Of a stretch of DNA of 64,000 nt, positions 4,843 to 33,338 are shown in pieces. The notes beneath the pieces were generated by a model. The model saw only the letters and a program-made list of their open reading frames with translations. It made no database searches and had not been told where the DNA came from. The translations under genes were made by a program, and so were the position numbers. The stretch is from Desulfomonilia bacterium (lineage in GTDB: Bacteria; Desulfobacterota; Desulfomonilia; UBA1062). Each line of letters starts with the position of its first letter. The stretch's first letter is position 1. Where the stretch lies: the NCBI GenBank assembly GCA_963664325.2, contig CAXXDQ010000004.1, forward strand, positions 288,001-352,000, written 5' to 3'.

Positions 4843-6150
4843 ATGAAGCGTTCCTTAAAACAGGTTTGTTTGTTTGTATTTGCGTTTTGCCTGATTTCAT
4901 CAGTTGCATTGGCCGATGTAACACCCGGTGAAACAATCAACCAAACAAACTGGCAGAAAATCCAGGGGCTCGTCCCGGACTACATTGTCACGTGGGTGAA
5001 AAACGGTGATATGACGATGAAGATCGGCAAACTCGATTATGACCCCGCATCCTACTGGAGCGATGACGTAAAGGCAAACTGGAAGTCAAATGTCGGCCGC
5101 TATAAAATCGATGAAAATAATGGCATCATAGATGTAAAAACAGGAAAGCCGGCGCATGACATAAAGGGGCTCCCTTTCCCTGAACCCGATGTGAAAGACC
5201 CGAAGATGCCAGTCATGCTCATGTGGAACAACATCTTTGGTGAATATTTTCTTCAGGGAAACAAACACAGCATGAACTACTGGCTTGCTTTCGGCAGAAA
5301 AGACAAAAGACCTGAAAAAGTTTTTGCCCTGGAGGACCTTACTTACATCATGAAACCCTGGCGACCCGGCTGCGACTACGCGCAACTTTCGGTCTTCCGT
5401 CAGCCCATGAGCATGTCGGGAACCGGAACGCTTGCCCTCTACCCCATTTACCCGCTTGACATCGGCAAAGGGCAGCGATTCGCCTATTCAACTGAAATGA
5501 GGAGGGAGCTCCGTCTCGATACAAAACTGACAGGCTCTGACGACCATTTCGGGTTCGATGCCGCCCCCGATGATTCATGGGTTGGTGGACCCAAAACTGC
5601 CATTAACGAGGGTGTATACAAATTCGTTCGTGAGCAGGATGCGCTCGTGCCTTATGTAGTGGAAGGTCCGCTTAAGGTCTCCTGGAAGGATAAAAACTAT
5701 CTCGGGATCGGGAGTGCTGAAACCGGTTATGAACTTAAGATGGGGTATAACACACCGGGCTGGACAGGGGCCCCGTGGCACGTCACCAATATCATATGGG
5801 TGAAGTCGAAGGTCTGGGTCTTTACGGTTAAAAGTACGGATCGCAGCTATAAATACGGCGAATGCGAGGGCTGGGTAGAGAAAGGGACATTATCACATAT
5901 CTACAAACGCATAACCGACGTTAACGGCAAGCTGTGGAAGGGATTATACTATGTGAGCCTGCCTGTTGAGTGCACTGACGGCAAATTCAAGAAGATGTCC
6001 CTTGAAGGCCAGGTTGTCGTCGACATGAGGCGTGACCATGGTTCGGTTTATCCCGGCGTTTATTACAAGGGCGCCTATTTCAAGATTCTCATAAAGAACG
6101 CAGAGCCTACTCTTTTCACGGCAGGCGGCTTTAAGCAGTTTTATAAATAA
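4843..6150 (+). CDS. DUF1329-family periplasmic protein (LolA-like sorting fold)
   Basis: AGGAGG before ATG 4843; signal peptide ending ALA-D; N-terminus PGETINQTNWQKIQGLVP, GLPFP motif and late D..GKLWK typical of DUF1329; context with YCF48/MMPL/DUF1302 genes. Confidence 0.75.
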   Translation: MKRSLKQVCLFVFAFCLISSVALADVTPGETINQTNWQKIQGLVPDYIVTWVKNGDMTMKIGKLDYDPASYWSDDVKANWKSNVGRYKIDENNGIIDVKTGKPAHDIKGLPFPEPDVKDPKMPVMLMWNNIFGEYFLQGNKHSMNYWLAFGRKDKRPEKVFALEDLTYIMKPWRPGCDYAQLSVFRQPMSMSGTGTLALYPIYPLDIGKGQRFAYSTEMRRELRLDTKLTGSDDHFGFDAAPDDSWVGGPKTAINEGVYKFVREQDALVPYVVEGPLKVSWKDKNYLGIGSAETGYELKMGYNTPGWTGAPWHVTNIIWVKSKVWVFTVKSTDRSYKYGECEGWVEKGTLSHIYKRITDVNGKLWKGLYYVSLPVECTDGKFKKMSLEGQVVVDMRRDHGSVYPGVYYKGAYFKILIKNAEPTLFTAGGFKQFYK

Positions 6151-6169
6151 GGAAAGTCAGCACTTATGA

Positions 6170-6236
6170 AGACAGCAGCCAGTATGAAAGTGAATGAATT
6201 TTAAATAGTAACCATTCCGACTGCCGGCTGCTGTCT
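6170..6236 (+). other. Intercistronic stem-loop
   Basis: 11-bp inverted repeat AGACAGCAGCC (6170-6180) / GGCTGCTGTCT (6226-6236) with no U-tract. Confidence 0.5.
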
Positions 6237-6272
6237 CTTGACTACTATATTCTGAGATTTCAGGAGGCTACA

Positions 6273-9200
6273 ATGTCATACCTTATGGGGCTAGACCTGG
6301 GCGGCGGCAGCGGCCGTGCAGTGCTTGTAGATTCAGCAACCGGAGAATCACATTCATCATCAGTCGCTTGGACCCATCCTGCAATGCCGGGTTCCATGGG
6401 ATTCGAGTTTGACCTTGACACGACGGACATATGGAACAAGATCGCCCTTGCGTGCCGAAGGGTCATGAAAAAAGCCGGAGCAAAGCCGGAGGATATCTCG
6501 GGTATTGCAACGACCTCCATGCGCCACGGAATAGTGGTGATCGATGAAACCGGCAATCCCCTGATGGCAACCCCTGCCGTGGACGCCCGCGCTGCAATGG
6601 AATCGATCACTCTCGTGGTCGAGCGCGGCAGGGAGCTCTACGAGATAACGGGCCGCTGGCCGTGTCCTGTCTTCGCTGCATGCAGGCTGATGTGGATGAA
6701 GTCAAACATGCCGGAGGCGTTTTCAAGGGCAGTGGCCTATCTGTCCGTAGCCGATTGGATCGGCTACAAGCTTACAGGCACAATCGCCATAGAAGCATCC
6801 CTCGCAGCCGAGTCAATGGCCTATGACATAAACAAACGAGAATGGTCAGCATCTCTTGTTGATTCTTACGAACTTCCGCTGACGGTATTCCCCAAGGTTG
6901 TCAACAGCGGGGAGGCAATAGGAACACTCAGCAAATCGGCCGCACAGCACCTGGGACTGGCTTCAGGGATTCCCGTTTCGGCTGGCGGCAGCGACACCCA
7001 GTGCGGGCTTCTGGGCTCAGGGGTGACTGCACCCGGGCAACTGGGAATAATCGCCGGAACGACAGTCCCCATGATGATGATCTCGGAAAAGCCCTTAATT
7101 GACCCTGAAAACAGGCTTTGGACAGGACTTGGCCTTTCGAAGGGCCAGTATGTTCTTGAAAGCAACTCGGGACCAATGGGTACGATGCTCGAACTTTTCG
7201 CAAGGATAATATCACCTGAAAGGGACAATGCAGCAGAGATCATGATGGCCGAAGCGGCCCAGTCGGCTCCGGGCTCCAATGGCCTTGTTTCAACTCTGGG
7301 CGCCCAGGTGTTCAACGGGAGTGATCTGGGCGTCCCGATGGGCAACCTTTCGATATCATACATGAGCCTGCTCAAAGGCTCCGGAAGGCCTGACACCGCG
7401 CGTTCAATCATTGAGGGCATGGCCTTCGCTCTAAGGGCGAACATTGAATCGATAGGCCGCGTAGCAGGAAGCCCCCCGAAAGAAATCCGTATAACCGGCG
7501 GCATGTCGCATTCTGGTGTTTTCACGCAGATCGTATCGGATGTCATGAACACAGTCATAGGGGTTGCGAATCCTCAGGCAACATGCATAGGTTCTGCAAT
7601 CGCTGCGGGTGTCGGGGCAGGTGTTTTCAAAAACCTGGATGAAGGGGCAGGCAAGCTCGTTAAACTCGTAAGGGAGCATTCTCCTTCAGGCAGCTCGGCG
7701 AAATACCAGGGGCTCTATCAGGGATGGAAAGGCATACTGGCCCCGGCCAAAGAGCTCGACAGCGTAACAGGAGGGATCGTGCTCAATGCAATAATGGGCG
7801 AGTCCGAGACATGCGAAACCAAGACCGACCTGAAGTTCAGGCCAAAGATATTCATATCCGCAGAAGTTGACGAGGAGTCGCTGGAAGCACTTAAGGCCCT
7901 TGGAGATGTTGAGTATGCCAGCTACCGGGAGGCAAGGAGGCTGCTGACGGGCGACGACCTTGTGAAGGCGCTGACGGGCGTCAATATTTTTATTACCGAA
8001 GTCGATGTGGTGGACGCCAAATCGCTTGCAAAGCTGCCCGACCTCAGGATGATCGTAGTCTGCCGGGCAGATCCCGTTAACATAGATATAAAGGCAGCCA
8101 CGGAATTCGGCATACCCGTGGTCAATACACCCGGCCGCAATGCCCTTGCCGTAGCCGATCTGGCAACCGCTTACATATTGAACCTTGCCAGGAAGATAAT
8201 CCCGGCTGACAGCTTTATTCACGAACCTGGCGGCGAAGCAGGCGACATGGGGCGCATGGGCAAGGCTCACGACGCCTTTCAGGGTCATGAACTGGCAGGC
8301 CTCACCATAGGCCTTGTCGGTCTTGGCGCAGTAGGGAAAGAAACCGCCAAAAGGCTTAAGGCTTTCGGTGCAAACATCCTCGCATTTGATCCCTACATAA
8401 GTGCCGAGAAAGCTGTTGTCGCAGGCGCCAGGAAGGCGGAGCTTGACGAACTACTGGCGTGCAGCGATATGGTAAGCCTTCATGCCCCGGTCACAGAAGG
8501 CACCAGGAAAATTATAAATTCTGATGCTCTGAACAAGATGAAAGACGGCGCCTGCCTTATAAACACAGCCAGGGCCGCCCTTGTCGATTATGACGCTTTA
8601 CTTGATGCTCTAAAATCAGGGAAGATTGCGGGAGCAGCGCTTGACGTATTCAATGTGGAGCCCCCGGCCGCTGATGACCCGCTTGTAAACATGCCCAATG
8701 TGATTTCAACCCCGCATATAGGAGGCAACACTGTCGAGGTGGCGGCACATCAGGGCGGCAGCGCGGCAAACGCGGTATCTGCACTTTTAAAGGGAGGTAG
8801 ACCGCAATGCCTTCTAAATCCGGAGGCTCTCAAGGAATTCTGCTGGACGGAAAAGGCAAAGATACCAGACGCGGATGTGCTGGACAAACTCATAAAGAAA
8901 CCCGGGGCATCGGTGACCGATCTTGAGGCAGGCGGCAAAAAGCAGAAGCAGGCGGTCTCTTCATGCGCAGCCGATATTTCCGGTGCCGATGAGGCCGTCA
9001 GGGAACACATGCTGAAAATAATAAAATCATTTACCTCCCGCATCGAGGCGGATGCCGAGCTCAAGATTTTTGCAGCCGACAAGGATGTGGTGATGCTCTT
9101 TGTCATGACTGACCTGGGGCTTCCTTTCTACCTGTTCTTCAGGGAAGGCGAGGTCAAAGCCGAGGCCGTTGAACCGGCCGAGGCCGATGTCGTACTCAAG

Positions 9201-10106
9201 ATGAAGGCGGACATCCTTGACGGCATGTTCACCGGCAGGGTGAGCGGAATGGATGCGGCAATGAGCGGCAAGCTCTCATTCAGCGGTGATACCGCAAAAG
9301 CCATGACCTTCCAGCAGATTCAAAAAGACATGATGAGACTTTACCAGGAAGTCCGCACCGAGATCGGCGACCCGGGTGACCTGACGAAAATTGGAAAGAA
9401 GGATCAGGCCAAACCGGCGGTGGCAGGTCAGGCAACAGCTGCCTTCGGCGCACCCGCCATTATAAAGGTGGGCGATATCAGGGACGATCTGCTTCAGGTA
9501 ACCAACGAGCTCTACGCACTCGGACTCATAACGGCTACAGGAGGCAATCTGAGCGTCCGCATCCCCGACAGGCCGGGAGAGTTGTGGATTACACCCTCGC
9601 ATATTTTCAAGGGCGATCTTCAGCCGGAGATGATGGTCCGGATTGATATCAACGGAAAACCTCTTGATGATGACTGCGGATATCCGGCATCGTCTGAACG
9701 GCACATGCATGCGTCGATCTACAGGCTAAGGCCGGATGTAAAAGCCGTTGTCCATTCGCATCCTCCTCTGGCCACAATCCTTGACCTGTCCGGTACACCG
9801 CTCAGGCCTATCAACACGGAAGTAGCATTTATTGCAGACCTGCCGGTAGTGCCTTTTATAATGCCGGGGTCGAAGGAGCTGGCAGATGCCGTGGCAACTG
9901 CAATAGGCACCGGGCCTGCGGTTATGATGAGAAACCACGGGCTTATAGTAGCCGCTGTCTCTCTCAGACGGGCAGCCGATATGACTGAGGTTATAGAAAC
10001 GACTTCCAAGACGCTCTTGGCATGCCGGTCCCTTGGAGTGACACCGCCAGAGATACCGCATGAGGTCGTAGAAAAGCTCAGAAGCCTATCAGACATGATG
10101 GCATGA
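6273..10106 (+). CDS. Four-domain fusion: FGGY carbohydrate kinase + D-isomer 2-hydroxyacid dehydrogenase + SCP2 lipid-binding domain + class II aldolase
   Basis: FGGY DLGGGSGR, TSMRHG, GGSDTQC, ITGG (about aa 1-505); dehydrogenase GLVGLGAVG, DPY, NTAR, DVFNVEP, TPHIGG (about aa 520-865); SCP2 GRVSGMDAAMSGKLSFSGD (about aa 905-1035); aldolase GGNLS, SSE, HSH, NHG (about aa 1065-1277). One uninterrupted ORF with AGGAGG RBS. Confidence 0.9.
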   Translation: MSYLMGLDLGGGSGRAVLVDSATGESHSSSVAWTHPAMPGSMGFEFDLDTTDIWNKIALACRRVMKKAGAKPEDISGIATTSMRHGIVVIDETGNPLMATPAVDARAAMESITLVVERGRELYEITGRWPCPVFAACRLMWMKSNMPEAFSRAVAYLSVADWIGYKLTGTIAIEASLAAESMAYDINKREWSASLVDSYELPLTVFPKVVNSGEAIGTLSKSAAQHLGLASGIPVSAGGSDTQCGLLGSGVTAPGQLGIIAGTTVPMMMISEKPLIDPENRLWTGLGLSKGQYVLESNSGPMGTMLELFARIISPERDNAAEIMMAEAAQSAPGSNGLVSTLGAQVFNGSDLGVPMGNLSISYMSLLKGSGRPDTARSIIEGMAFALRANIESIGRVAGSPPKEIRITGGMSHSGVFTQIVSDVMNTVIGVANPQATCIGSAIAAGVGAGVFKNLDEGAGKLVKLVREHSPSGSSAKYQGLYQGWKGILAPAKELDSVTGGIVLNAIMGESETCETKTDLKFRPKIFISAEVDEESLEALKALGDVEYASYREARRLLTGDDLVKALTGVNIFITEVDVVDAKSLAKLPDLRMIVVCRADPVNIDIKAATEFGIPVVNTPGRNALAVADLATAYILNLARKIIPADSFIHEPGGEAGDMGRMGKAHDAFQGHELAGLTIGLVGLGAVGKETAKRLKAFGANILAFDPYISAEKAVVAGARKAELDELLACSDMVSLHAPVTEGTRKIINSDALNKMKDGACLINTARAALVDYDALLDALKSGKIAGAALDVFNVEPPAADDPLVNMPNVISTPHIGGNTVEVAAHQGGSAANAVSALLKGGRPQCLLNPEALKEFCWTEKAKIPDADVLDKLIKKPGASVTDLEAGGKKQKQAVSSCAADISGADEAVREHMLKIIKSFTSRIEADAELKIFAADKDVVMLFVMTDLGLPFYLFFREGEVKAEAVEPAEADVVLKMKADILDGMFTGRVSGMDAAMSGKLSFSGDTAKAMTFQQIQKDMMRLYQEVRTEIGDPGDLTKIGKKDQAKPAVAGQATAAFGAPAIIKVGDIRDDLLQVTNELYALGLITATGGNLSVRIPDRPGELWITPSHIFKGDLQPEMMVRIDINGKPLDDDCGYPASSERHMHASIYRLRPDVKAVVHSHPPLATILDLSGTPLRPINTEVAFIADLPVVPFIMPGSKELADAVATAIGTGPAVMMRNHGLIVAAVSLRRAADMTEVIETTSKTLLACRSLGVTPPEIPHEVVEKLRSLSDMMA

Positions 10107-10116
10107 GGCGCAGATT

Positions 10117-11178
10117 ATGAAGAAAGCGGGAAACATCATTATTGTGCTGATTGCGGTTGCGGTAGCTGTTTCGGTTGCTGTCATTCTGGCAAGGCCGGAA
10201 CAGAAAGCTGCCGCAATTGTGGAAAACCAGATAGGATCAAACCTGTTTTCGGGAGCCGTTCTGACTGAAACAGATATGCTTGTCGTTGGAGACCTCGGAA
10301 AAGTTTATCTGAGTGCAGACAGAGGTAAGATCTGGCGTGAAGTGCAGACGCCGACGAAGTTCGCTCTTCTCGATGTGAGCATGAACGACGATAAAAGCGG
10401 CTGGGCTGCAGGACAGGCAGGCGTAATCCTGCACACGGCAGACGGCGGGAAGACATGGTCGGTCCAGAAGTCGGGAGTTGAAGGATCCCTGCTCGGGATA
10501 CACGCCCTTGACGCCTTTCATGCATGTGCAGTGGGCGCGGATTCGACCGTGATCGTCACGAGTGACGGCGGCGCAACATGGATCAAGGCGTCCCGGCCTG
10601 GAGAAGAACCGGCAAAGGAAGGTCAGCCCCCGGCGGCGGGATTCAACGTCTTCGGGGTCAAAATGATTGATGCAAACACAATCTGCGTGGCAGGCTATAT
10701 GGGAAGGATTTTCCTGACAAAAGATGCGGGAAAGATATGGGCTGAAATAAAGTCTCCATTATATGATGCTGAGAATCAGGTAGGCAGGACAATATTCACG
10801 CTGGCCGGTGGAACAGGAGGAATCCTCGCCGCGGCCGGGACTGATATGGCGATTTTATTGTCTAAGGATGGTGCAATGACCTGGACTGAAACCGACGCCG
10901 GAATTCATGATCCTGAAATATTCGGCATAGACCTCGAAGGCCAGGCCGGTCTTGCAGCGGGTTCAGCAGGAACCGTGCTTGTTTCATCAGATGCGGGTAC
11001 GACATGGAAAAAGACGGATATTCCGGAAATGCTGAAGCGGGCCTGGCTTTCGGACGTGGACCTCAAGAGCACCCCTTCTGGCATCAAAGGCCTCATAGTC
11101 GGCCAGTACGGAATAATAGGAATTTATGAAAACGGGAATGTCTCCTGGCAGATCCCGGTAATCCCGGAGGTTCAGTGA
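10117..11178 (+). CDS. YCF48/BNR-repeat beta-propeller periplasmic protein
   Basis: N-terminal TM/signal; repeated (S/T)xDgGxTW Asp-box motifs. Confidence 0.85.
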   Translation: MKKAGNIIIVLIAVAVAVSVAVILARPEQKAAAIVENQIGSNLFSGAVLTETDMLVVGDLGKVYLSADRGKIWREVQTPTKFALLDVSMNDDKSGWAAGQAGVILHTADGGKTWSVQKSGVEGSLLGIHALDAFHACAVGADSTVIVTSDGGATWIKASRPGEEPAKEGQPPAAGFNVFGVKMIDANTICVAGYMGRIFLTKDAGKIWAEIKSPLYDAENQVGRTIFTLAGGTGGILAAAGTDMAILLSKDGAMTWTETDAGIHDPEIFGIDLEGQAGLAAGSAGTVLVSSDAGTTWKKTDIPEMLKRAWLSDVDLKSTPSGIKGLIVGQYGIIGIYENGNVSWQIPVIPEVQ

Positions 11179-13484
11179 TGAAAGATAACAAGACTCCGGT
11201 TAAGGTAATGCTAGGCGCTTTAGTATACCAGTTCAGGGTTTTGGTCCTAGCGGCAGTTTTAATCATATGCGCCCTTTGCATGGTATTTCTCAAGGACGTA
11301 AAACTTGACGAAGACCCGATGGCAAGTATGTATCCTGACGGAAACCCTTTCCTTAAAGGACTCAAGCCTATTGAAAAAATGGCTCCCAGAACCAATATGC
11401 TTGTCTGCCTGCTCAAAGCGAAAAACGGCGATATCTACAATACCGCGGCGATCAATAAGATAGATGAAGTGACAAAGGCCCTGATGGACTGTGAGGTGAT
11501 AAATCCGACCTCGGTAACTTCGCTTACGAAGGGGATGGATAATTATATATTCACGGCAAACGGCCTTAACATCGCATCGGTCATGGGAAGTTCCTGGCCG
11601 GAAACTCCCGCACAGTTTGAAGAGCTCAAGGAGAGAGTCGCCACAAACCCGATGGGGCCCGGCAAATACGTATCCTATGACGGCAAGGCGGTTATGATAA
11701 CGGCGAACCTTGTGAGCGTTGAGCAGATGGCTCAGTCTACCTGGCAGCTCCTCGACGACAAACAGAAGGCCGGAAGGACCTTTGAAAAATACAAGGCTGA
11801 TGCAGAGGGTGAATTCGATCCGAAGCTGATGAAAAAACTCGATGAATTGAAGAAGAAAGTTAATGATAAGAATTATGAGCTCCTGTTCATGGGTGAAGAG
11901 GTCATCAAGGCCGACATGACAAAGATGGGCATGACGCAAATGCCCGTTGCCGGCGGATTGATGTTTGCCCTGATGATAGTGCTGGCAGCAGTCTATTTCA
12001 GGAGCTGGCAGGCGGTGCTGATCTCGATAATCGCCATGATATTCCCTGCGGGCGCAGGACTCGGCCTCTTCAGCCTTTTCGGCGGAAGTCTAAATCCGAT
12101 GGCGGTTCTGTTCCCGCTCACGATTGCAATAACGAGTGTGGCGGCTTCGGTACTGGTGATGGATGGCTACTACAGGGCCGTGTCAGAAGGAAGCGACAGG
12201 ATATCGGCTGTCATGGCATCATGGGGTAAGGTTCCTGCAGGACTGGCAATCGCCGCGATATCCTTTCTTGCGCTCCTGGCCACAAAAGTTCTGATGTTAA
12301 GGGTACTTGGTATTCTTGGCGCAATAAGCTTTGTGATGGTGATTGCCGTAACATGCCTCGCGGTGCCTGCAATTGCCTCGATCCTGCCTCAGCCAAAAAA
12401 CAAGCCCCGCGCCTGGGAAGGTATTTCTTCAGCGCTTTCCCCTGCAGGAAGAATCAGGTACCTCGCAATTGCCGTTCTGGCCTTATTGTTAGCCCTCGGC
12501 GTCTTCTCGGTCTATACGATCAAGCCTGGAGACAATACCCCGGGGTCATCATACCTCTGGTATTCGAATCAGTGGAACAAGGCTTTCAATCTCTTTACGC
12601 AAAAATTCATGGGCCCGAATCAGCTCCTCGTCTATGTAAAGGCAAAAGAAGAAGGCGGGTTGTGTAAACCGGAAGCCCTACAGGATATAAGCGCTTTCAG
12701 CAATTTCCTGAAATACCGCTCTGGGGCCAAAGACTCAATCGCCTTTGATTACATGATCCAGATGGCCCGTTACACCATGAGCGACGGCAGTCCGAAGTGG
12801 CAGACTCTGCCGGAGACGGACCGAGAGGGGAAGGGCCTTGGCGGTACGGTGACCGAAAACAGCGATGTAAAGGAATTCATAGACCCTACATACACACAGG
12901 CGACCATATCACCGTTTTTTCCTTACAGGGACAGTGAAAGCATAAACGAATATGCAAGACTGATGCAGAATTATATTGATGCGCATCCGTCGGAATCGGT
13001 TTCATTCAGGCTTGGAGGCAGTCTGCTCGGTATGGTGAAACTGATAAATGACGGGATTGAAGGCAGCTACAAAATAATCCTTGCGGCAATGGCGACAATA
13101 ATTCTGATCCTTTCCATACTCCTGCTCCGATCATTCAAAACAGGCGTTTCTTATTCTGTCATTGTAATGGTTTCAACGATGGCCGTTTCCATGAAGCTGG
13201 CATTCTGGGGGATGCCTTTGTCCCTGCCCTTTGTTGCAGTGGCGGCTGCAGGAACGGGCGCCGCTGCCACCATGGCTGCAACTGCTCTGGAAAATACTAG
13301 AGCCGGCGCAGTCCTGTTTTCATCCGTGCTGGTTTTACTGATGTGCCTGCCGTGGTTCTTCATAGGCATGAGGTTCCAGGCGCTCATGATAATGGGATTT
13401 GCTGTTTCTGCAATATCGGGCGGTATTCTCGCCCTGATTTTTTTACCGGTTTTGTTAATCCGTAAAAACGAGGAGGTAAGCTGA
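11175..13484 (+). CDS. MMPL/RND-superfamily membrane transporter
   Basis: Two repeats of TM + large periplasmic loop + multiple TMs; overlaps the upstream stop (GTGATG). Confidence 0.8.
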   Translation: MMKDNKTPVKVMLGALVYQFRVLVLAAVLIICALCMVFLKDVKLDEDPMASMYPDGNPFLKGLKPIEKMAPRTNMLVCLLKAKNGDIYNTAAINKIDEVTKALMDCEVINPTSVTSLTKGMDNYIFTANGLNIASVMGSSWPETPAQFEELKERVATNPMGPGKYVSYDGKAVMITANLVSVEQMAQSTWQLLDDKQKAGRTFEKYKADAEGEFDPKLMKKLDELKKKVNDKNYELLFMGEEVIKADMTKMGMTQMPVAGGLMFALMIVLAAVYFRSWQAVLISIIAMIFPAGAGLGLFSLFGGSLNPMAVLFPLTIAITSVAASVLVMDGYYRAVSEGSDRISAVMASWGKVPAGLAIAAISFLALLATKVLMLRVLGILGAISFVMVIAVTCLAVPAIASILPQPKNKPRAWEGISSALSPAGRIRYLAIAVLALLLALGVFSVYTIKPGDNTPGSSYLWYSNQWNKAFNLFTQKFMGPNQLLVYVKAKEEGGLCKPEALQDISAFSNFLKYRSGAKDSIAFDYMIQMARYTMSDGSPKWQTLPETDREGKGLGGTVTENSDVKEFIDPTYTQATISPFFPYRDSESINEYARLMQNYIDAHPSESVSFRLGGSLLGMVKLINDGIEGSYKIILAAMATIILILSILLLRSFKTGVSYSVIVMVSTMAVSMKLAFWGMPLSLPFVAVAAAGTGAAATMAATALENTRAGAVLFSSVLVLLMCLPWFFIGMRFQALMIMGFAVSAISGGILALIFLPVLLIRKNEEVS

Positions 13485-13486
13485 CA

Positions 13487-15313
13487 ATGAAGATCTTTAG
13501 AACCGTGATTATGATGTTTATTCTCATGTTATTCATTCAGGGGCAGGCCTATGCCATCTGGACTGATGAATCAGGTAATTACAAGCTTATAGGAAAGGTC
13601 AAGTCACAGGCGACATGGCGCACAGAGGATACGCCGGTCAACAACCCCATCCCCATAGAAAAAGGTGACCTAATAAGCCAGAGGAATCTTCTTCTTGCTG
13701 AATTCAGCGGCGATTTCGGCGATCTCGGCAAAGGCTTCAAGTCAAAGTGCTTTTTGCAGGGCAGGGCCTTTTATGACGGTGCATATGATTACGGGGCCAA
13801 AATACTGACTACTGACGGCGATTATTATGACATTAACAACCCCGACAGGCTTTACAATCAAAAATGGAAAGAGCAGACAGGGGATTATCAGAACCAAAGG
13901 CGGTATTACACCTATGACAACCGCGACCAGATCAACAGCCTGAAATGGGATGTGGACCTGTACATGGCATATATCGATTTTATGAAAGGCGGGGCATTTT
14001 GCCGGCTGGGCAAACAGGTCATGGCATGGGGGGAAATGAGTACGCTTAGAATCCTTGAAGGACAAAACCCTCTCGACACATCATCGCTTGCCGTTGACCT
14101 TCTGGAAAGGCGCATTCCGCTCTGGATGGCCCGCGCCAACTATGCATTTGCCTATGTAGGACCATTCGATTCACTGTCATTCGAAGCTTATTACGTACCC
14201 GGAAAGATAGACAATACCTATGAGGAGCCGATGATAGACGGTTCCCCTATTCTGCCCAGTATCGGCAGAGATACTGTAGATGATTATAAGGATCCTTTTT
14301 CAATGGCATCGCTCAAACTCAACATGAATCAGGTCAACAGTGACATTGACTCAGACAGGTATGGCCTTAAAGCCGGTTTTGTATTCAAGGGGCTCAATCT
14401 CAACCTTGTATATTACAGGATGTATTCTGACATACCGGTTGCAGTTATTAATTCAGATGCGCTTGAACCTGTTGTCATAACGGATATAACACAGGTAAAT
14501 CCCAAGAACCCTATGGGTTCGATACTTGGCGGTCAGCTTCTTGAAGTGGACCTTACTCGCGACAATGTCAATGTTTACGGCGGTAGTTTCAATTACCAGA
14601 TGGAAGCAATAAACACAGTATTCAGAGGCGAGTTCGCTTATTTTTCACAGGTGCCGTATATGACCCCGGGCAAGCTTTCGGATATGGTGGACCAGTTCAA
14701 CCCCAAAATAACAATATACTTCGACGGACAACCGCATGATGTTGTCTGGTTTTTAAATACATTTTACAAGAGGGACCTTGAAAACATCGATAAAATGATC
14801 TTGCCCTTTTCCACAGGCGAGGTGGAAAAATATGATGTGCTGAAGTACGGTATCGGAATCGACAAGTTCTACAATTTTTCATGGCTGGCGCCGAAAAAAC
14901 ATATCCCCGTTATTTCTGATATCATTCCCAGCGATGATGTCATGTTCAAGTTCGAATACGTAGGCAACAAGATACTCGGATGGAAGGAAGACCACCTCCT
15001 GGAACCATGGTATGAGCCATGGGATGATAATCAGGATGGCCAGTTTGATACGGTTTATTATCCCGAATATTCAAACACGTTTATATTGATTACGAGGCTT
15101 TCATATCTGACCGCGAACCTTACACCGCAGCTTGTAGTGATGTACGAGCTTGAACCAAAATCTCTGGTTTTCATACCGTCCATTGCATACACTTACAGGA
15201 ACTGGGAATTTGAAATCGATTATTTTGAATCGGGGGCAAACAACTATTCAGGTACTCTCGGCATGATGGACAAGAGGGATGAATTAAGCATTATGGTCAC
15301 CTACAATTTCTAG
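13487..15313 (+). CDS. DUF1302-family outer-membrane beta-barrel protein
   Basis: Signal peptide AYA; RLGKQVMAWGE, RIPLW motifs; C-terminal DKRDELSIMVTYNF beta-signal ending in Phe. Confidence 0.8.
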   Translation: MKIFRTVIMMFILMLFIQGQAYAIWTDESGNYKLIGKVKSQATWRTEDTPVNNPIPIEKGDLISQRNLLLAEFSGDFGDLGKGFKSKCFLQGRAFYDGAYDYGAKILTTDGDYYDINNPDRLYNQKWKEQTGDYQNQRRYYTYDNRDQINSLKWDVDLYMAYIDFMKGGAFCRLGKQVMAWGEMSTLRILEGQNPLDTSSLAVDLLERRIPLWMARANYAFAYVGPFDSLSFEAYYVPGKIDNTYEEPMIDGSPILPSIGRDTVDDYKDPFSMASLKLNMNQVNSDIDSDRYGLKAGFVFKGLNLNLVYYRMYSDIPVAVINSDALEPVVITDITQVNPKNPMGSILGGQLLEVDLTRDNVNVYGGSFNYQMEAINTVFRGEFAYFSQVPYMTPGKLSDMVDQFNPKITIYFDGQPHDVVWFLNTFYKRDLENIDKMILPFSTGEVEKYDVLKYGIGIDKFYNFSWLAPKKHIPVISDIIPSDDVMFKFEYVGNKILGWKEDHLLEPWYEPWDDNQDGQFDTVYYPEYSNTFILITRLSYLTANLTPQLVVMYELEPKSLVFIPSIAYTYRNWEFEIDYFESGANNYSGTLGMMDKRDELSIMVTYNF

Positions 15314-15322
15314 CACATTTTA

Positions 15323-15347
15323 ACCCTCTCCCACAAAGGGAGAGGGT
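15323..15347. repeat. GC-rich hairpin of the BoxC/REP-like CCCTCTCCC-loop-GGGAGAGGG type
   Basis: Perfect 10-bp stem ACCCTCTCCC-ACAAA-GGGAGAGGGT between DUF1302 and AOR; single copy seen in the window. Confidence 0.6.
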
Positions 15348-15365
15348 GGTGTTGAAGGATATGAT

Positions 15366-17348
15366 ATGCCGAACGGCTACATGGGTAAAATTCTCTGGGT
15401 TGATCTATCGAACGGCACATTTGAAGAAGAAACTCCCCCGGAAGAGATCTACCGAAAATACCTGGGCGGATACGGACTTGGAGCATATTTCATTTATTCC
15501 CGCATTAAACCGGGTTGTGATCCGCTGGGTCCGGATAATATTCTCGGCTTTTGCCCGGGCCTTTTTACAGGCACGCCCGCACCTTTCACAGGCCGTTACA
15601 TGGTCTGCGGCAAAAGCCCGCTGACCGGCGGCTGGGGCGACGCGAATTCGGGCGGACATTTCGGTCCAGTTATCAAACAGGCCGGTTATGACGCTATACT
15701 TTTCACGGGAATTTCTGATAAACCGGTTTACCTGCTTATCGATAATGAGAGGAAAGAGCTTTGTGACGCCTCCGAATTATGGGGAACAGATATTGTCAGA
15801 ACCGAGGAAAAACTCATTGAAAGGCACGGTAAAAGTTTTAAGGTGGCGGCGATCGGCAAAGGCGGAGAGAATAAAGTTCTCTTTTCTGGCATTGTCTGTG
15901 ACCGCGGCAGGATTGCAGCAAGAAGCGGGCTGGGTGCTGTCATGGGCAGCAAGAATCTCAAGGCGCTGTGCATCAGGGGCTCGCTCAAAAGAAATTATGC
16001 GGACAGGACAAAAGCAATCGAGCTTGCAAAGGATTATAACCAGAAACTGAAACTCACCATGACCAATCCGATGATAGGAATGCTTACATCAATGTCGGAT
16101 AATTTCACATTTTTCATGCGCCTTTTTAATATCGGATTTGATATAGCAGGCAAGTTGCAGGGTATTGCTCCGCTCTTATTCAGGTATTTTTTTCACAGGT
16201 GGGGCACACCTTATGCGACTGTCATCAGCCATGAAACTGGCGACACTCCGATAAAAAACTATATCGGGGATGTCAGTGATTTTCCGAAAAGGCTATCAAA
16301 GAAGCTGAACAAGCATGCAAGCTCTCCATACAAAACAAAGGCCTTCGGCTGCTTCGGTTGTCCTGTTCAGTGCGGTGCGATTTTAACCGCTCCTCCGCTC
16401 GATTATGCGGACAAGGAGACTCACAGGCCGGAATATGAAACGATGGCTGCTTTCGGGGGGCTGATCCTCAACAATGATTTCAATACTGTTTTAAATATCA
16501 ACGAATACCTGAACCGTGAGGGAGTGGATACCATATCAGCTGGAGGCGTGGTCGCCTATGCGCTTGAATGCGTGGAAAAAGGGCTGCTGAAAAAGAATGA
16601 CTTCGAATGCAGGGAATTCCCTGACGGGTTCCTTCCCGGATGGGGAAAAGCCGAGACAATCATGCCGCTTCTGAAACTCATCGTAAACAGGGAAGGTATC
16701 GGCGATGTGCTTGCCCTTGGGGCAGGAGCGGCATCAGAAAGGATCCCCGGGTCGAAGGAATTTGCCGTAACATCGGGCGGCCAGGAACTGCCTATGCATG
16801 ATGCACGCAAAATGCCAGGGCTGATGCTGACCTATGCGGCAGACCCGACTCCGGGCCGCCATACCGCAGGAGGCGTGGATTTCCTGCTTATGGGTTCTGC
16901 CAACCGGTTTGCAAAAGGCATTTCCTTCAAGTCAGGCAAAGACCCTGATAAAAAAGGTGCGGGCCAGGCTCATGCGGTTAAATTCAAGCAGGCGTTTAAT
17001 GCTATGGGTTTCTGCGAGTTCAGTGCCTGGTGCGGGTGGTATCCCCTATGGGAGATGTTCAGGGCGATCACCGGCTGGGACATGACTCCCGAAGAACTGC
17101 TGAAAACCGGGTGGCGGATTCAGACATTAAGGCAGCAGTTCAATGCGCGCGAAGGTGCTATAAAGATTGATGTCAACAGACGCGCACTCGGCATCCCGCC
17201 TCGAAAAAACGGTGTGCACAAAAACGTTACAATCGACATTGAGCCTTTTGTTCAGTCTTATTACAAGCACATAGGATTTGACGAAAAAGGATTCCCGAAG
17301 AAGGAAACCCTTGAACTGCTGTGTCTTGCAGATTGCCTTTTAAGGTGA
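15366..17348 (+). CDS. aor: Aldehyde:ferredoxin oxidoreductase family protein (W/Mo-pterin, 4Fe-4S)
   Basis: GYMGKILWVDLS, YLGGYGLG, KSPLTGG..DANSGG, GLGAVMGSKNLKA, CFGCPVQC, PEYET, DTISAG. Confidence 0.93.
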   Translation: MPNGYMGKILWVDLSNGTFEEETPPEEIYRKYLGGYGLGAYFIYSRIKPGCDPLGPDNILGFCPGLFTGTPAPFTGRYMVCGKSPLTGGWGDANSGGHFGPVIKQAGYDAILFTGISDKPVYLLIDNERKELCDASELWGTDIVRTEEKLIERHGKSFKVAAIGKGGENKVLFSGIVCDRGRIAARSGLGAVMGSKNLKALCIRGSLKRNYADRTKAIELAKDYNQKLKLTMTNPMIGMLTSMSDNFTFFMRLFNIGFDIAGKLQGIAPLLFRYFFHRWGTPYATVISHETGDTPIKNYIGDVSDFPKRLSKKLNKHASSPYKTKAFGCFGCPVQCGAILTAPPLDYADKETHRPEYETMAAFGGLILNNDFNTVLNINEYLNREGVDTISAGGVVAYALECVEKGLLKKNDFECREFPDGFLPGWGKAETIMPLLKLIVNREGIGDVLALGAGAASERIPGSKEFAVTSGGQELPMHDARKMPGLMLTYAADPTPGRHTAGGVDFLLMGSANRFAKGISFKSGKDPDKKGAGQAHAVKFKQAFNAMGFCEFSAWCGWYPLWEMFRAITGWDMTPEELLKTGWRIQTLRQQFNAREGAIKIDVNRRALGIPPRKNGVHKNVTIDIEPFVQSYYKHIGFDEKGFPKKETLELLCLADCLLR

Positions 17349-17381: not shown

Positions 17382-18479
17382 TCATTTATAAACGCTGAAA
17401 TCAATCCCCCGGTTGTTTCCCCGCTCTTCGAACCATTCATTTTCAGTCAGAGGCGGAACGGCAATTTCCGATTCGGGTTTTCGAACAAGTTTCATTGCTG
17501 AGGCCGGACAGGTTGTTATGCATAACCCGCATCCTATACATCGTTCTTTGATAATCCCGTAAACATCTCCCGGAGCGATAGCATTAACCTGGCAGCGCTC
17601 CGAGGCGCATATACCGCAGCCGGTACAGGCATCAGTATTAATATCTGCAACATACATGGAATTCACAACCTGCGCGGCAGGGACATTAAATCTGTTGATG
17701 GACAAAAGCACTCCGCAGCAGCATGAGCAGCAGTTGCAGATAAATATTCTGCCATGCTGCAAATTGAATGTTAGATGTACCAGCGCCATATCTTCGGTTT
17801 CTTTCAGCAGTTCGTAAGCCTGTTGTCTGGTCAGGGTCCGGCCGGAGCCGTAATCTTCAAAGGCATCCGGGATCGGGGCCATTGCCATGCAGACCTGCAG
17901 GGGACGGTCGCAGGCGTGTCCGGTAAGCCTCATTTTCTTTTTACATACACAATCCATTACCTTGAATGACTGGGACTGTTCAATCAGGGCGGATATTTTT
18001 TCAAACGGTAATGCCTCGTGCACTCCCTTGATTTCTTCTTCAACAGGCAAAACCTGCATCAGTTGAGGAGTATATGCCGTGAACGATTCCTCAAAAAAGG
18101 GCTGATACTCATCGAGCAGGATTGCCATTTCCCTGTCCATTCGATCGTTTTGAAATTCAAATATCCCGAAAACCCAGGGCATCATTTTATACCAGCGGAA
18201 CTCACCGAATTTCACTGAAAAGACCTGTCCGTCTTCACGCATTGTTTCGAGGATATCCCTTGTCTGCAGCGGATCACGCCCTGTTCGCAGGGAAACCTCA
18301 TCGGCCGTCTCCATGGTGAGTCTTAATTCGCAGAACATCTCGGCCTGTTCGGGCGTGAATATTTTCTTAAGCAGCTTTATTTCGATCCCAGATTCGGTCG
18401 GAGGAAAGCCATTCGGCAGCGTATCAAGGACACGTGCAAGCTTTTTATAAATAGAATCGTTCATAAGTGGCTTCTCCAT
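17382..18479 (-). CDS. 4Fe-4S binding protein (Cys-rich, C-terminal ferredoxin dicluster)
   Basis: CVC, ICNCCSCCC, CTGCGICASERC and CIGCGLCITTCP motifs. Confidence 0.8.
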   Translation of the reverse strand: MEKPLMNDSIYKKLARVLDTLPNGFPPTESGIEIKLLKKIFTPEQAEMFCELRLTMETADEVSLRTGRDPLQTRDILETMREDGQVFSVKFGEFRWYKMMPWVFGIFEFQNDRMDREMAILLDEYQPFFEESFTAYTPQLMQVLPVEEEIKGVHEALPFEKISALIEQSQSFKVMDCVCKKKMRLTGHACDRPLQVCMAMAPIPDAFEDYGSGRTLTRQQAYELLKETEDMALVHLTFNLQHGRIFICNCCSCCCGVLLSINRFNVPAAQVVNSMYVADINTDACTGCGICASERCQVNAIAPGDVYGIIKERCIGCGLCITTCPASAMKLVRKPESEIAVPPLTENEWFEERGNNRGIDFSVYK

Positions 18480-20692: not shown

Positions 20693-20733
20693 TTGACAAA
20701 AATGAAGCTATTTGTCAATTGGTAAGACCATTT
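20693..20733 (+). promoter_or_regulatory. Putative promoter with FadR-subfamily operator AATTGGTAAGACCATTT
   Basis: TTGACA at 20693-20698; operator at 20717-20733 is one base from the PdhR box AATTGGTAAGACCAATT; also the inverted repeat TTGACAAA-N10-TTTGTCAA (20693-20718). Confidence 0.72.
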
Positions 20734-20762
20734 TGTTTCAACTTCTAATACAGGAGGTCTCA

Positions 20763-21893
20763 TTGAAAGGAGTCCGTTTCGAACCGATAGGCTTTTACAA
20801 GGAATCCCTGATCAAGAGAATGAAGGAAAAAGGCCTCGATGCTGTTTTACTGACCACGCCTGAAAATGTAATGTATACTACCGGATACCCGTGCCTGCCC
20901 GGAAGCGGTAACCCTATTTTATTTGCGCTCAAAAACCAGTTCCCGTTTCTATCTTTTATTGAACTTGACGGCAAAGTTACCCTTGGCTGCTGGATCGGGG
21001 CGATACTGGGTGATGTAGAGTTTGAATGCGATCATATGGAACTCTGGGCCGACAGGTCAGGTGCAGAGGTTACGCTTAATAACTTTTTTCAGGCAAAAAA
21101 TCTTTCCGGAAAAAAAGTAGGCGTTGAATCAGGGATGCCCGTTTATCTGCGGGACATAATCATTAAAACCTCACCTGGTGTAGAACTGGAATACATTGAC
21201 AATGTTATGGATTCACTAAGGTTGATCAAATCCGATTATGAACTTGAAATGATCAGAAAGGCAACAATGATAGCAGAAACGACTGTGAAAGAACTGATCA
21301 GTGAAGTCATAAAGCCTGGCATTACCAGGCCGGAGCTGATTCAGGAGGCCAAGTGGCGCATGATTAGAAACGGGGCCACGGGAATCGGTCATGTTACCAT
21401 TTCATTCGGCACTTCAAACCCGGAGGTTTCAATCAATGAAACGCTGGGTACAGGACAGCTCGTTGCACTCGACCTTGGAGCTAGTTATTACGGCTATCTC
21501 TCGGACATAAGACGGCATGCCTTTACCGGGACAATCCCCGAAGGTCTGACCTTACTGCATAATAAAATGATTGGTATTGTGAATGAGGTGAGCAGGTATC
21601 TCGTCCCGGGAGCAACGGCCAAAGAAATATATGATATGGCCGTTAAAATTTATGAACGCGAAAGATTGGTCCCGCTTATTGTGACGGCCGGCCATTCAAT
21701 AGGCCTTATGACTGAAGAAGTCTGGCTTTATAACCTTAGCGATCTAGTGCTGAATCCCGGTATGGTGATTAATATCGAGTTGTATTACAGCTATGAAGAA
21801 GGAATAGAAATAGGCGATGAAGAAACATACATCATCACTGAAACCATACCTGAAAAGATAACTGTTCTGCCGGTGGATATAATAAGCGTATAA
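20763..21893 (+). CDS. M24-family (Xaa-Pro peptidase/creatinase-like) metallohydrolase
   Basis: Creatinase-N-like domain; LRLIKS..E; metal ligands in DLG..GYLSD, GHSIG, NIE, DEE. TTG start at 20763 follows AGGAGG. Confidence 0.85.
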   Translation: MKGVRFEPIGFYKESLIKRMKEKGLDAVLLTTPENVMYTTGYPCLPGSGNPILFALKNQFPFLSFIELDGKVTLGCWIGAILGDVEFECDHMELWADRSGAEVTLNNFFQAKNLSGKKVGVESGMPVYLRDIIIKTSPGVELEYIDNVMDSLRLIKSDYELEMIRKATMIAETTVKELISEVIKPGITRPELIQEAKWRMIRNGATGIGHVTISFGTSNPEVSINETLGTGQLVALDLGASYYGYLSDIRRHAFTGTIPEGLTLLHNKMIGIVNEVSRYLVPGATAKEIYDMAVKIYERERLVPLIVTAGHSIGLMTEEVWLYNLSDLVLNPGMVINIELYYSYEEGIEIGDEETYIITETIPEKITVLPVDIISV

Positions 21894-21916
21894 GCACACC
21901 GGATTGGAGATATCCA

Positions 21917-22672
21917 GTGACACAGAAAAGCAAATCGGTTTTAAAAAAAGATCGCTCAGGAAATCAGGCAAAACCGTCTGAAACATATGCCAACGGAGAA
22001 GTCCTGCCGGAAAAGCTTGCCCAGAGGGTTCTGACGCTTATAAGAGAAAAAGGGCTTAAAGCCGGAGACAAGCTCCCTCCTGAAAGAGTGCTTTCGGCTA
22101 TTTTTAATGTGAGCAGGCCTTCGCTAAGAGAGGCTCTCCACGCCCTGAAGCTTATGAATATTATTGAAAACCGACAGGGTTCGGGGACCTTTGTCTCATC
22201 GCTTACCCCTGAAAAGCTTGTCGAGCACCTCGACATCGAGTTTGCCCTTGACGATTCCACTTATGCAAACCTGCTCCAGGCAAGAACCATTCTTGAAGCG
22301 GGAATGGTGGCCCTTGCTGCCGAAAATATCGATGAAAACGATATATGTGAAATCGAGCGCTGTCTTGATGAGGCCGTCAAGGTTATAGACGACCCCGAAA
22401 TATTCATGGCATGTGATATTGACTTGCATAGGCGTATTATGGAAGTTGCCGGAAACAGGATCATAAAGGCATTCATGCATTCAATAGACAGGATAAGCAT
22501 CTACAGCAGGCGGAGAACCGGTGATGACATGGAGGTTCGCAGGCAGGCCGTAAAAGACCACAGGGAGATCGTGACGGCCCTGAAGGCTCATGACCCCGAT
22601 GCGGCAAGAAAGGCCATGATCGCGCACCTTTCGCATGTAGGCAAAAAGTTCAATTTATTGAGCGTGTCATGA
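21917..22672 (+). CDS. FadR/GntR-family transcriptional regulator
   Basis: GDKLPPERVL..FNVSRPSLREAL..L, GSGTFV winged HTH; FCD domain D..LH...H..I...D..A...M..HL. Confidence 0.93.
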   Translation: MTQKSKSVLKKDRSGNQAKPSETYANGEVLPEKLAQRVLTLIREKGLKAGDKLPPERVLSAIFNVSRPSLREALHALKLMNIIENRQGSGTFVSSLTPEKLVEHLDIEFALDDSTYANLLQARTILEAGMVALAAENIDENDICEIERCLDEAVKVIDDPEIFMACDIDLHRRIMEVAGNRIIKAFMHSIDRISIYSRRRTGDDMEVRRQAVKDHREIVTALKAHDPDAARKAMIAHLSHVGKKFNLLSVS

Positions 22673-33282: not shown

Positions 33283-33338
33283 ATAAAAACTTGCAGCTTT
33301 GCACATGCTTATCTTTATTATGAATGGGGAGGCATTTC

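Follow-up and report, generated by a model that had tools for sequence, protein, structure and literature searches.

What is an enzyme assembled from sugar-catabolic modules doing inside a gene cassette associated with hydrophobic compounds? This question is raised by a stretch of 64,000 nucleotides (the window) from a Desulfomonilia bacterium (GenBank assembly GCA_963664325.2, contig CAXXDQ010000004.1, positions 288,001 to 352,000 of the forward strand). Positions 4843-17348 of the window carry a run of six genes, which encode a DUF1329-type envelope protein, a fusion of FGGY kinase, D-2-hydroxyacid dehydrogenase, SCP2 and class II aldolase modules, a Ycf48-like propeller, an RND-superfamily transporter, a DUF1302 outer-membrane barrel and an aldehyde:ferredoxin oxidoreductase (AOR). 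We estimate a probability of about one half that these six genes, presumably co-transcribed, constitute one operon handling a hydrophobic molecule with a terminal polyol. Judging from the protein families and their neighbours, the fusion probably releases a three-carbon sugar phosphate from the polyol terminus of such a molecule.

An initial annotation of this DNA had described the six genes as one co-directional run with small gaps between the middle genes. Open reading frames (ORFs) listed on the + strand of the window, together with Pfam matches, confirmed both statements: the intergenic gaps along the run are 122, 10, -4 (an overlap), 2 and 52 nt. For the first gene, the ATG at 4843 is a likelier start than that of the longest ORF, since it is preceded by a ribosome-binding site, GGAGGAG. 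The genes on either side of the run point the opposite way: the one upstream, of PBP1 type, ends at 4637, and those downstream encode a Fer4 protein and a lipoprotein. A scan for promoters and terminators returned 14 promoter-like sites in comparison with 15.9 expected and 25 terminator-like sites in comparison with 14.8 expected, and it placed no terminator-like site in the intergenic gaps of the run. The gene order is non-random, because the arrangement DUF1329-fusion-BNR-RND(-DUF1302) recurs in L010-L014. The fusions of these five related loci share 53-86% identity with that of the window and lie, as in the window, between the DUF1329 and BNR genes. The contigs of two of these loci end within the RND gene.

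Table 1. Coordinates of the six-gene run, the modules of the fusion and further features discussed in the text. Positions are those of the window unless a locus is named.
Feature	Position	Strand	Evidence or remark
DUF1329-type, LolA-like envelope protein	4843..6150	+	N-terminal signal peptide; longest ORF starts at 4807
Four-module fusion enzyme, 1277 aa, cytoplasmic	6273..10106	+	Pfam, motifs, shared architecture
FGGY kinase module, closest to LsrK	6273..7757 (residues 1-495)	+	FGGY_N, FGGY_C
D-2-hydroxyacid dehydrogenase module, phosphoglycerate dehydrogenase-like, NAD-type	7839..8834 (residues 523-854)	+	2-Hacid_dh_C
SCP2 lipid-binding module	9090..9326 (residues 940-1018)	+	PF02036
Class II aldolase module (zinc, dihydroxyacetone phosphate type)	9486..10016 (residues 1072-1248)	+	Aldolase_II
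Ycf48-like BNR beta-propeller, 353 aa	10117..11178	+	PSII_BNR; N-terminal membrane anchor or signal
RND-superfamily inner-membrane transporter, 769 aa, MMPL/HAE3/HpnN-like	11175..13484	+	MMPL match
DUF1302 outer-membrane beta-barrel, 608 aa	13487..15313	+	PF06980; signal peptide, C-terminal ...TYNF
Aldehyde:ferredoxin oxidoreductase (tungsten AOR family), 660 aa	15366..17348	+	AFOR_N + AFOR_C
365-aa protein, C-terminal 2x[4Fe-4S] domain	17382..18479	-	Fer4 families; convergent with the AOR gene
M24 peptidase/creatinase-like gene and GntR(FCD) regulator	20712..22672 (GntR 21917-22672)	+	Pfam
SCP2-less fusion and 227-aa class II aldolase	L009 (G000:C3:987000-1006999), ORFs 10281-12947 and 12992-13675		Consecutive genes
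Fusion-less DUF1329-BNR-RND-DUF1302 cassettes	L128 (G297:C138), L129 (G083:C25), L125 (G045:C1)		

The fusion of kinase, dehydrogenase, SCP2 and aldolase reported in the initial annotation is real. All four modules were recognised by Pfam (FGGY_N 4.9e-47, FGGY_C 2.2e-18, 2-Hacid_dh_C 3.6e-58, SCP2 1.8e-12 and Aldolase_II 8.8e-45), the SCP2 module with 47.9 bits against a cut-off of 21.3 and the Aldolase_II match spanning profile positions 2-182 of 183. When 23 members of the fusion family were aligned, catalytic motifs were invariant in the kinase (D8, G10, D241, T242, G409 and G410, for which we presume the usual roles of FGGY motif residues), in the dehydrogenase (G683, G685 and G688 of the GxGxxG motif, D706, R767, E796 and H815) and in the aldolase (S1140, S1141, E1142, H1161, H1163 and H1222). 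We take E1142 and H1161/H1163/H1222 to be the catalytic glutamate and the metal-binding histidine triad of FucA-type enzymes. Among solved structures, the kinase module is nearest to LsrK (5ya0, 197.9 bits) and the dehydrogenase module to phosphoglycerate dehydrogenase (PGDH; 1wwk, 181.7 bits), with McyI also among its nearest chains; the SCP2 module matched solved SCP2 structures weakly (E 0.15-0.8).

None of the catalytic modules reached the NCBIfam cut-off of a characterised enzyme. The kinase scored 255.9 as autoinducer-2 (AI-2) kinase LsrK (cut-off 528), 206 as XylB (380) and 137 as FucK (471), so that an LsrK identity was rejected, and the dehydrogenase scored 237.6 as PGDH (454). Likewise, the aldolase module fell below the cut-offs of the 3-oxo-tetronate-4-phosphate decarboxylase OtnC (106.9 against 250) and of L-ribulose-5-phosphate 4-epimerase (103 against 251); these two labels were set aside, and both chemistries are still compatible with the sequence. 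The nearest structures of this module are nearly tied (6voq 82.5, FucA 4c24 81.2 and 6btd 80.3 bits, with 6vop likewise at about 80-82), and because they score alike, sequence does not separate an aldolase from a decarboxylase here.

The four-module architecture was kept in 120 of the 120 homologues listed (best database clusters, 43-97% identity), all of which retain SCP2, with conserved residues in the 23-member alignment. A collection of contigs with one genome per species yielded 417 confirmed relatives of the fusion, whose hosts include Chloroflexota, Myxococcota, Desulfobacterota-type metagenome-assembled genomes, five Mycobacterium species, Halioglobus/Haliea and Uabimicrobium. In addition, the window's own genome encodes an SCP2-less paralogue, an 888-aa FGGY and 2-Hacid_dh fusion that is 46% identical, and four further SCP2-less fusions were found in the phylum (L133-L136). 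A separate Aldolase_II gene follows each of these five. Since the SCP2-less fusions keep the aldolase as the gene next door, the comparison indicates that the kinase-dehydrogenase-aldolase triad is the conserved core and SCP2 an addition to it. A divergent sulfatase, a gamma-glutamyltranspeptidase and a PKD protein are encoded beside the SCP2-less paralogue of the window's genome. In the literature searched, which comprised titles and the beginnings of abstracts with supplements outside that scope, no paper on an FGGY/SCP2/class II aldolase fusion was found.

The module set lends itself to an ordered reaction sequence. LsrK phosphorylates the terminal hydroxyl group of an open-chain diol, and PGDH oxidises the carbinol that adjoins a phosphorylated CH2 group. 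In the scheme that we propose, the SCP2 module would grip the hydrophobic tail of the substrate while the LsrK-like kinase phosphorylates its terminal CH2OH; the PGDH-like, NAD-dependent dehydrogenase would then oxidise the neighbouring CHOH to a ketone, giving a head of the ketose-1-phosphate type, which the zinc class II aldolase would split by retro-aldol cleavage into dihydroxyacetone phosphate (DHAP) and a hydrophobic aldehyde. AOR would oxidise the aldehyde to an acid and reduce ferredoxin, a task that may fall to an aldehyde dehydrogenase (ALDH) in aerobes. DHAP would enter glycolysis, and aerobes would go on to activate the acid by an acyl-CoA ligase. The chemistry requires a free 1,2,3,4-tetrol end. 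The initial annotation had placed oxidation before phosphorylation; the order of the domains and the PGDH-like character of the dehydrogenase fit phosphorylation first.

Ketose-1-phosphate routes that pair an FGGY-type kinase with a class II aldolase are known for L-fucose (FucK/FucA), L-rhamnose (RhaB/RhaD) and 5-deoxyribose (the DHAP shunt, DrdK-DrdI-DrdA). The proposed pathway would resemble them in the addition of a terminal phosphate, cleavage by a zinc class II aldolase to DHAP and an aldehyde, and subsequent oxidation. On the other hand, neither the fusion nor the operon contains an aldose-ketose isomerase, the place of which is taken by the PGDH-like module, and here all modules are fused with SCP2 and neighbours are lipid-type in many loci. 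Because a dehydrogenase replaces the isomerase and no equivalog cut-off was reached, the operon, as far as its sequence indicates, works like these routes and is not a member of them. In erythritol catabolism the kinase EryA acts first and the polyol phosphate is then dehydrogenated by EryB, a GlpD-type flavoenzyme. The order proposed here, phosphorylation of a polyol followed by oxidation of the adjoining carbinol, would be the same, whereas the EryA/EryB route continues through isomerases instead of an aldolase and has neither SCP2 nor an envelope cassette. In a third system, the kinase OtnK belongs to the DUF1537 family and the classical dehydrogenases are LtnD/DenD; the closest structural match of our aldolase module, 6voq, presumably belongs to the OtnC neighbourhood. 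In the OtnK/OtnC route and its Ltn3D variant, a class II aldolase-fold enzyme gives DHAP after the action of a dehydrogenase and a kinase (PMC12994016). The pathway proposed here would share this logic. It differs in its FGGY kinase, in the OtnC score given above and in its 2-Hacid_dh dehydrogenase, which is an SDR enzyme in the Ltn3D variant (PMC12994016), and the OtnK/OtnC route acts on soluble sugar acids.

Lipid-type genes and aldehyde-oxidising enzymes recur around the fusion. Neighbourhoods were counted in the best 80 of the 417 relatives, 36 of which had full 10-kb flanks; ORFs were called by a simple longest-ORF script and clustered, many contigs being short, and annotation covered the clusters present in at least three loci and 88 further immediate neighbours, with AOR located by tblastn and phylum labels taken from record titles. 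Genes for AOR or ALDH were found within 10 kb of the fusion in 15 of the 80 loci, AOR in 10 (L014 and nine Chloroflexota) and ALDH in five. AOR abuts the fusion at 24-44 nt in L024, L028, L030 and L060, and ALDH lies directly downstream of it in four of the five Mycobacterium loci and upstream in L045. Lipid-type genes (acyl-CoA ligase, acyl-CoA dehydrogenase (ACAD), P450 and KshA-like) stand near the fusion in 29 loci. By family, the neighbours comprise acyl-CoA ligase (18 loci), an NAD epimerase or 3beta-hydroxysteroid dehydrogenase-type protein (11), AOR (10), short-chain dehydrogenase/reductase (SDR; 9), ACAD and class-III aminotransferase (7 each), M28 peptidase and TetR (6 each), ALDH, P450, KshA-like Rieske protein, major facilitator superfamily (MFS) permease and GntR-UTRA (5 each), and thiolase, sulfatase and WS/DGAT (4 each). 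The recurrent NAD epimerase neighbour also matches the fatty-acyl reductase domain PF07993. In aerobes, acyl-CoA ligase, ACAD, P450, KshA-like and thiolase genes recur beside the fusion. Within the phylum, genome G341 has three ACAD genes beside the row ligase (FACS)-TetR-P450-fusion, and in L012, from the window's own family, an ACAD and a FadB-like gene lie upstream of the fusion on the same strand. On a fusion tree of 79 rows, from which two rows had been dropped for frame problems, linkage counted as minimum changes gave at least 8 for AOR and 12 for acyl-CoA ligase. The recurrence of AOR or ALDH together with lipid-type neighbours fits conversion of a polyol head to DHAP and an aldehyde that is oxidised to an acid. 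Judging from the aminotransferase, M28 and amidohydrolase genes nearby, the substrates may also include forms with an amine or amide.

The AOR of the window is a full-length member of its family (AFOR_N 9e-76, 254.5 bits; AFOR_C 9.1e-85, 285.5 bits) and is nearest to 1aor among solved structures (294.5 bits). Its genome holds five AOR-family matches including this one, two of them distant (25-28% identity). In a 13-row tree AORs clustered by host lineage, and for this reason the fusion-linked AORs were probably recruited separately. We considered a dedicated AOR subfamily shared across phyla and rejected it, as the AORs of the window and L014 group with the genome's own paralogues. The link between fusion and AOR in the initial annotation is supported as a recurrent one.

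In the cassette around the fusion, the first protein gave no Pfam DUF1329 match at 1e-3, nor any match at that place in a whole-genome hidden Markov model scan; at a relaxed E of 10 or less only LolA_like appeared (E 0.0075). However, this protein is 49% identical over its full length (E ~1e-150) to proteins of L128 (9623-10930) and L129 (10093-11460), and these pass PF07044 with 55.8 and 62.8 bits (cut-off 23.1). The DUF1329 label of the initial annotation therefore holds by homology and not by the Pfam model. The remaining proteins matched PSII_BNR/Ycf48 (353 aa; 5.3e-20, 72.3 bits), MMPL weakly (769 aa; 23.1 bits against a cut-off of 20.5) and DUF1302 (608 aa; PF06980, 9.6e-31, 107.8 bits against 23.2). 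We take the RND gene of the module to be of the COG1033 type. Its product belongs to the same superfamily as the lipid-exporting HpnN, MmpL and HAE3 proteins and matches them weakly (HpnN 23.5 bits, HAE3 19.7 bits). Its scores lie far below the cut-offs (751.85 for HpnN), and as no squalene-hopene cyclase match was found in the window's genome (95.6% complete), it is not the exporter of a hopanoid producer.

Structure prediction pointed to a pairing of the two outer components. For DUF1302 and the DUF1329-type protein, ipSAE was 0.77 and that of the best of three controls 0.00, with 7-row custom alignments; 58 of 80 solved complexes and two of 110 mismatched pairs attained that mark. The runs shared at least 90% of their contacts, and the partner had a predicted local distance difference test (pLDDT) of at least 86. 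An AlphaFold2 model of the DUF1329-type protein alone, made from a 6-row alignment, had a mean pLDDT of 31.4, too low for use. A profile of its family found among PDB sequences only 9tp6, an outer membrane lipoprotein-sorting protein (E 0.095). Many strands of the barrel take part in the predicted contacts, suggesting a position of the partner in or on the lumen, and the model supports the view that this divergent DUF1329-type protein works with the DUF1302 barrel. These results place the window cassette, on sequence, in the known DUF1302/DUF1329/BNR/RND module. Genes of that module are cofit in several bacteria, and export of a cell-wall component was proposed for it by Price et al. (10.1101/072470); in P. 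putida its genes are required when Tween 20 or butyl stearate serves as growth substrate (10.1101/2020.07.04.188060), and co-folding led to its proposal as a substrate transport system (PMC10866462). DUF1302 has been modelled as an 18-strand barrel pairing with DUF1329, and ECLIPSE gave an ipTM of 0.84 for a Pseudomonas pair (PMC13499233). The window cassette shares with the Pseudomonas and Shewanella modules (PP_0765/PP_0766 with PP_2018/PP_2019; Sama_1588-1591) the same four families and the same predicted barrel-partner contact, and the cassette there is tied to the use of hydrophobic esters (10.1101/2020.07.04.188060). It differs from them in the cytoplasmic catabolic gene inserted within the module, in the AOR gene downstream, in a host that is apparently an anaerobe and in a DUF1329 member too divergent for the Pfam model.

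In the proposed operon, the barrel and its DUF1329 partner at the outer membrane, the propeller in the periplasm and the RND protein in the inner membrane would carry a greasy molecule across the envelope. The direction would most likely be inward, for catabolism, because the catabolic context and the Pseudomonas phenotypes fit uptake. Alternatively, part of the module may expel the leftover greasy acid, which would fit the precedent of RND proteins and the lack of a ligase in the operon.

Where the fusion and the cassette occur together, in a sample of 401 genomes of the phylum, they are adjacent; the four-domain fusion is carried there by G000, G345 and G341. Outside the clade of the window, locus L046, on a distant branch of the tree, has the fusion followed by a DUF1329-type gene (hhalign probability 99.4%) and an RND-like gene. 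A looser association was seen in one genus (G045 and G297), in which consecutive genes encode TetR, a stand-alone 2-Hacid_dh, a stand-alone FGGY and a DUF1302-family barrel of 514 aa (L124 5756-10774, L131 6244-11231). The stand-alone enzymes are 38-43% and 31-32% identical to the respective fusion modules and the barrels next to them match PF06980 with 30 and 29 bits; no class II aldolase was seen near these sets, and in G241 and G211 no barrel stands beside the pair. A FadL/TodX gene lies 4 kb from the set in L124. In close relatives of the window, L014 (3-8451) and L010 (228-2061), the cassette is preceded by genes for an Amidohydro_2 protein and an EamA/NIPA-like drug/metabolite transporter (DMT) permease, where the window has the opposite-strand PBP1 gene; L014 additionally has upstream a split transketolase, a zinc alcohol dehydrogenase, an SDR, a class-III aminotransferase and an NAD epimerase-type gene.

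Several observations weigh against one operon for a polyol-ended lipid. Linkage to the cassette is narrow: it was found in five of the 80 loci and the window, which form one clade (6 of the 79 rows, one change on the fusion tree), and of the 401 genomes 17 have the DUF1329 subfamily, three the four-domain fusion and two both. In G393, from the window's own family (96% complete), the cassette is present and the fusion was not found. Orthologous cassettes (DUF1329 49-53% identical) occur without a nearby fusion in another family with large genomes and at least four DUF1329 paralogues per genome; that of G297 is preceded by genes for an acyl-CoA ligase, an ACAD, a DUF35/ChsH2-like protein and a DMT-type permease, a short TAL/FSA (transaldolase/fructose-6-phosphate-aldolase) gene follows it in G297 and G083 (one genus), and that of G045 adjoins an M28 peptidase gene. 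Furthermore, an RND/LolA-like/DUF1302 trio elsewhere in the window's genome adjoins isoprenoid-synthesis genes (L137, G000:C7:446000-465999), RND proteins of the MmpL/HpnN type are known as exporters, and the operon contains no acyl-CoA ligase. As for the neighbourhoods, 34 of the 80 loci have no recurring neighbour, with full flanks in just the 36 named above, and genes of sugar type (GH38, alpha-amylase, SorC-type regulator, ribulose-phosphate epimerase and MFS) occur at some of the Chloroflexota loci. The Chloroflexota AOR travels with a class-III aminotransferase in five of its nine loci, so that its aldehyde could derive from an amine. The pathway proposed in the initial annotation is supported in part, by the fusion with its motifs, the AOR or ALDH genes and the lipid-type neighbours; the expected co-occurrence with the cassette is restricted to one clade and L046.

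The alternative that survives best, though we consider it unlikely, is that the substrate of the fusion is small and soluble, a polyol or a compound resembling a sugar, such as an alditol or an AI-2-like dione, with SCP2 as a structural linker and the cassette unrelated. LsrK, to which the kinase module is most similar, acts on a small molecule, and the chemistry can do without SCP2, since five genomes, that of the window among them, encode SCP2-less FGGY-dehydrogenase fusions with a separate aldolase. The sugar-type neighbours in some Chloroflexota, the MFS permeases in five loci and the 34 uninformative loci are also consistent with a soluble substrate. However, SCP2 with conserved residues in all 120 listed homologues, the lipid-type neighbours in 29 of 80 loci, and the position of the fusion within the cassette in six genomes and beside a DUF1329-type gene in L046 argue against such a substrate. 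No sugar ATP-binding cassette or phosphotransferase-system importer was found among the annotated neighbours, which cover part of the ORFs.

We regard as doubtful, and as somewhat less probable than a soluble substrate, the opposite direction, in which the operon builds or remodels an envelope lipid and exports it: AOR in reverse or an acyl reductase would supply a fatty aldehyde, the aldolase would add DHAP, the dehydrogenase would reduce the ketone and the RND protein would export the product. Aldolases and AORs are reversible, and RND proteins of the MmpL and HpnN type export. The L137 trio, which consists of an RND protein with MMPL and sterol-sensing domains, a DUF1302-like barrel and a LolA-like-DUF1329 partner, stands beside a 913-aa HMG-CoA reductase-EcKL fusion, a B12-radical-SAM gene and a sub-threshold UbiA-like match (28.1 against 34.2 bits), and looks like an exporter of a self-made isoprenoid lipid; given this biosynthetic setting, modules of this kind would not all be catabolic importers. 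WS/DGAT genes in four of the five Mycobacterium loci, the match of the recurrent NAD epimerase neighbour to PF07993 and the export of a cell-wall component proposed by Price et al. (10.1101/072470) would fit synthesis as well. On the other hand, synthesis would leave the invariant, ATP-dependent FGGY kinase without a function, the neighbours that recur are of catabolic types (TetR and GntR repressors, ACAD, thiolase, FadB-like, P450 and KshA-like), and the P. putida module is required for growth on fatty esters (10.1101/2020.07.04.188060). Finally, it is very improbable that these genes are neighbours with no shared pathway, the cassette serving envelope lipid housekeeping and AOR general aldehyde scavenging, for although the genome has five AOR-family matches (two distant), the window AOR groups with its own paralogues instead of the fusion-adjacent AORs of Chloroflexota and the cassette occurs elsewhere without the fusion, the gaps between fusion and cassette genes are 10, -4 and 2 nt, the inserted position between DUF1329 and BNR is kept by fusions as little as 53% identical, and AOR adjacency recurs across many Chloroflexota sub-clades.

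If the operon does act on a polyol-ended lipid, bacteriohopanetetrol is a candidate substrate, to which we attach a small probability. The side chain of bacteriohopanetetrol is a C-linked ribitol chain that leaves a terminal 1,2,3,4-tetrol on hopane, and this head group would fit the required chemistry exactly, which makes it a chemically apt guess. The kinase would act at C35 and the dehydrogenase on C34; the aldolase would break the bond between C33 and C32 in a retro-aldol reaction, releasing DHAP and a C32 hopanal, and AOR would turn the hopanal into C32 bishomohopanoic acid. The operon would then be the anaerobic form of a widespread pathway harvesting the side-chain end. As the genome has no squalene-hopene cyclase match, the hopanoid would come from outside; the module would either import it or expel the ring acid, which the anaerobe cannot degrade, the latter option being suggested by an operon without acyl-CoA ligase. 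The class-III aminotransferase, M28 and NAD-reductase genes of Chloroflexota and of L013 and L014 would feed in amino- or N-substituted hopanepolyols. C32 bishomohopanoic acid is the dominant hopanoic acid of sediments, for which the usual explanation is unspecified oxidative diagenesis. The evidence does not tell hopanoids from other tetrol-ended or aminopolyol lipids, for example phytosphingosine-type bases, and the literature searched contained no paper on hopanoid catabolic genes.

Candidates for further components and for regulation lie close to the run. The 365-aa Fer4 protein is 38.9% identical to a protein encoded two genes before the fusion in L020 and 33% identical to one encoded about 5 kb upstream of the SCP2-less fusion in L133. 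It possibly belongs to the locus; with at least five paralogues in the genome, the match may be due to chance. In L016, the gene immediately preceding the fusion encodes a GntR that shares 49.6% identity with the GntR(FCD) regulator, and another L016 gene shares 43.7% with the adjoining M24 protein, which makes the two window proteins a candidate regulator pair of the locus. A perfect palindrome, TTGGTCTGACCAA, occupies positions 4780-4792; a promoter-like site precedes it and the DUF1329-type gene follows. The M24-GntR(FCD) pair is headed by a copy (20719-20731) with two mismatches. The form of the palindrome recalls, to our eye, the operators of FadR-type GntR proteins. At up to two mismatches it has four matches in the window, a number reached by 7 of 100 shuffles and hence not above chance, and its core pattern is absent from the related loci except copies of the window DNA and L119; as a putative regulatory site it is a lead.

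Farther downstream, a 598-aa predicted lipoprotein (18621-20417, - strand; cysteine after ...MFFSA) has one 27%-identical paralogue in the genome and no Pfam family. Its best Atlas match scored 0.85, under the 0.9 level; the matches are hypothetical proteins of Myxococcota, with BPI-like families at ranks 19 and 26, and a few of the matched clusters carry BPI/LBP/CETP lipid-binding domains, a weak lead. At 33324-40124, two genes in tandem encode proteins of some 1100 aa that contain PKD and K319L-like PKD domains. A lipid biosynthesis cluster at 40884-63934, which we take to resemble clusters of the aryl-polyene type, contains two B12-binding radical-SAM-type, three ketosynthase-type and AMP-binding genes, together with an aromatic amino acid ammonia-lyase, a FakA/DegV-like fusion, GT2, a 1037-aa MMPL and methyltransferase fusion, an LpxL-like acyltransferase, a polysaccharide deacetylase and an SDR-LolA fusion.

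What the window adds is a fusion embedded in the envelope module, its AOR in an anaerobe, a predicted barrel-partner contact and a measure of how narrow the link to the cassette is. If the proposed pathway is correct, bacteria would own a compact means of stripping a glycolytic three-carbon unit from the polar end of a lipid, with one protein that both carries the lipid through its SCP2 module and performs three reactions. Anaerobes would couple it to a ferredoxin-reducing AOR and this lineage, in addition, to a trans-envelope lipid conduit debated since 2016, so that the DUF1302/DUF1329/BNR/RND module would gain a concrete substrate class. Such a pathway would also provide an enzymatic origin for the polyol-trimmed lipid acids of anoxic sediments, with hopanoic acids as the obvious candidate.

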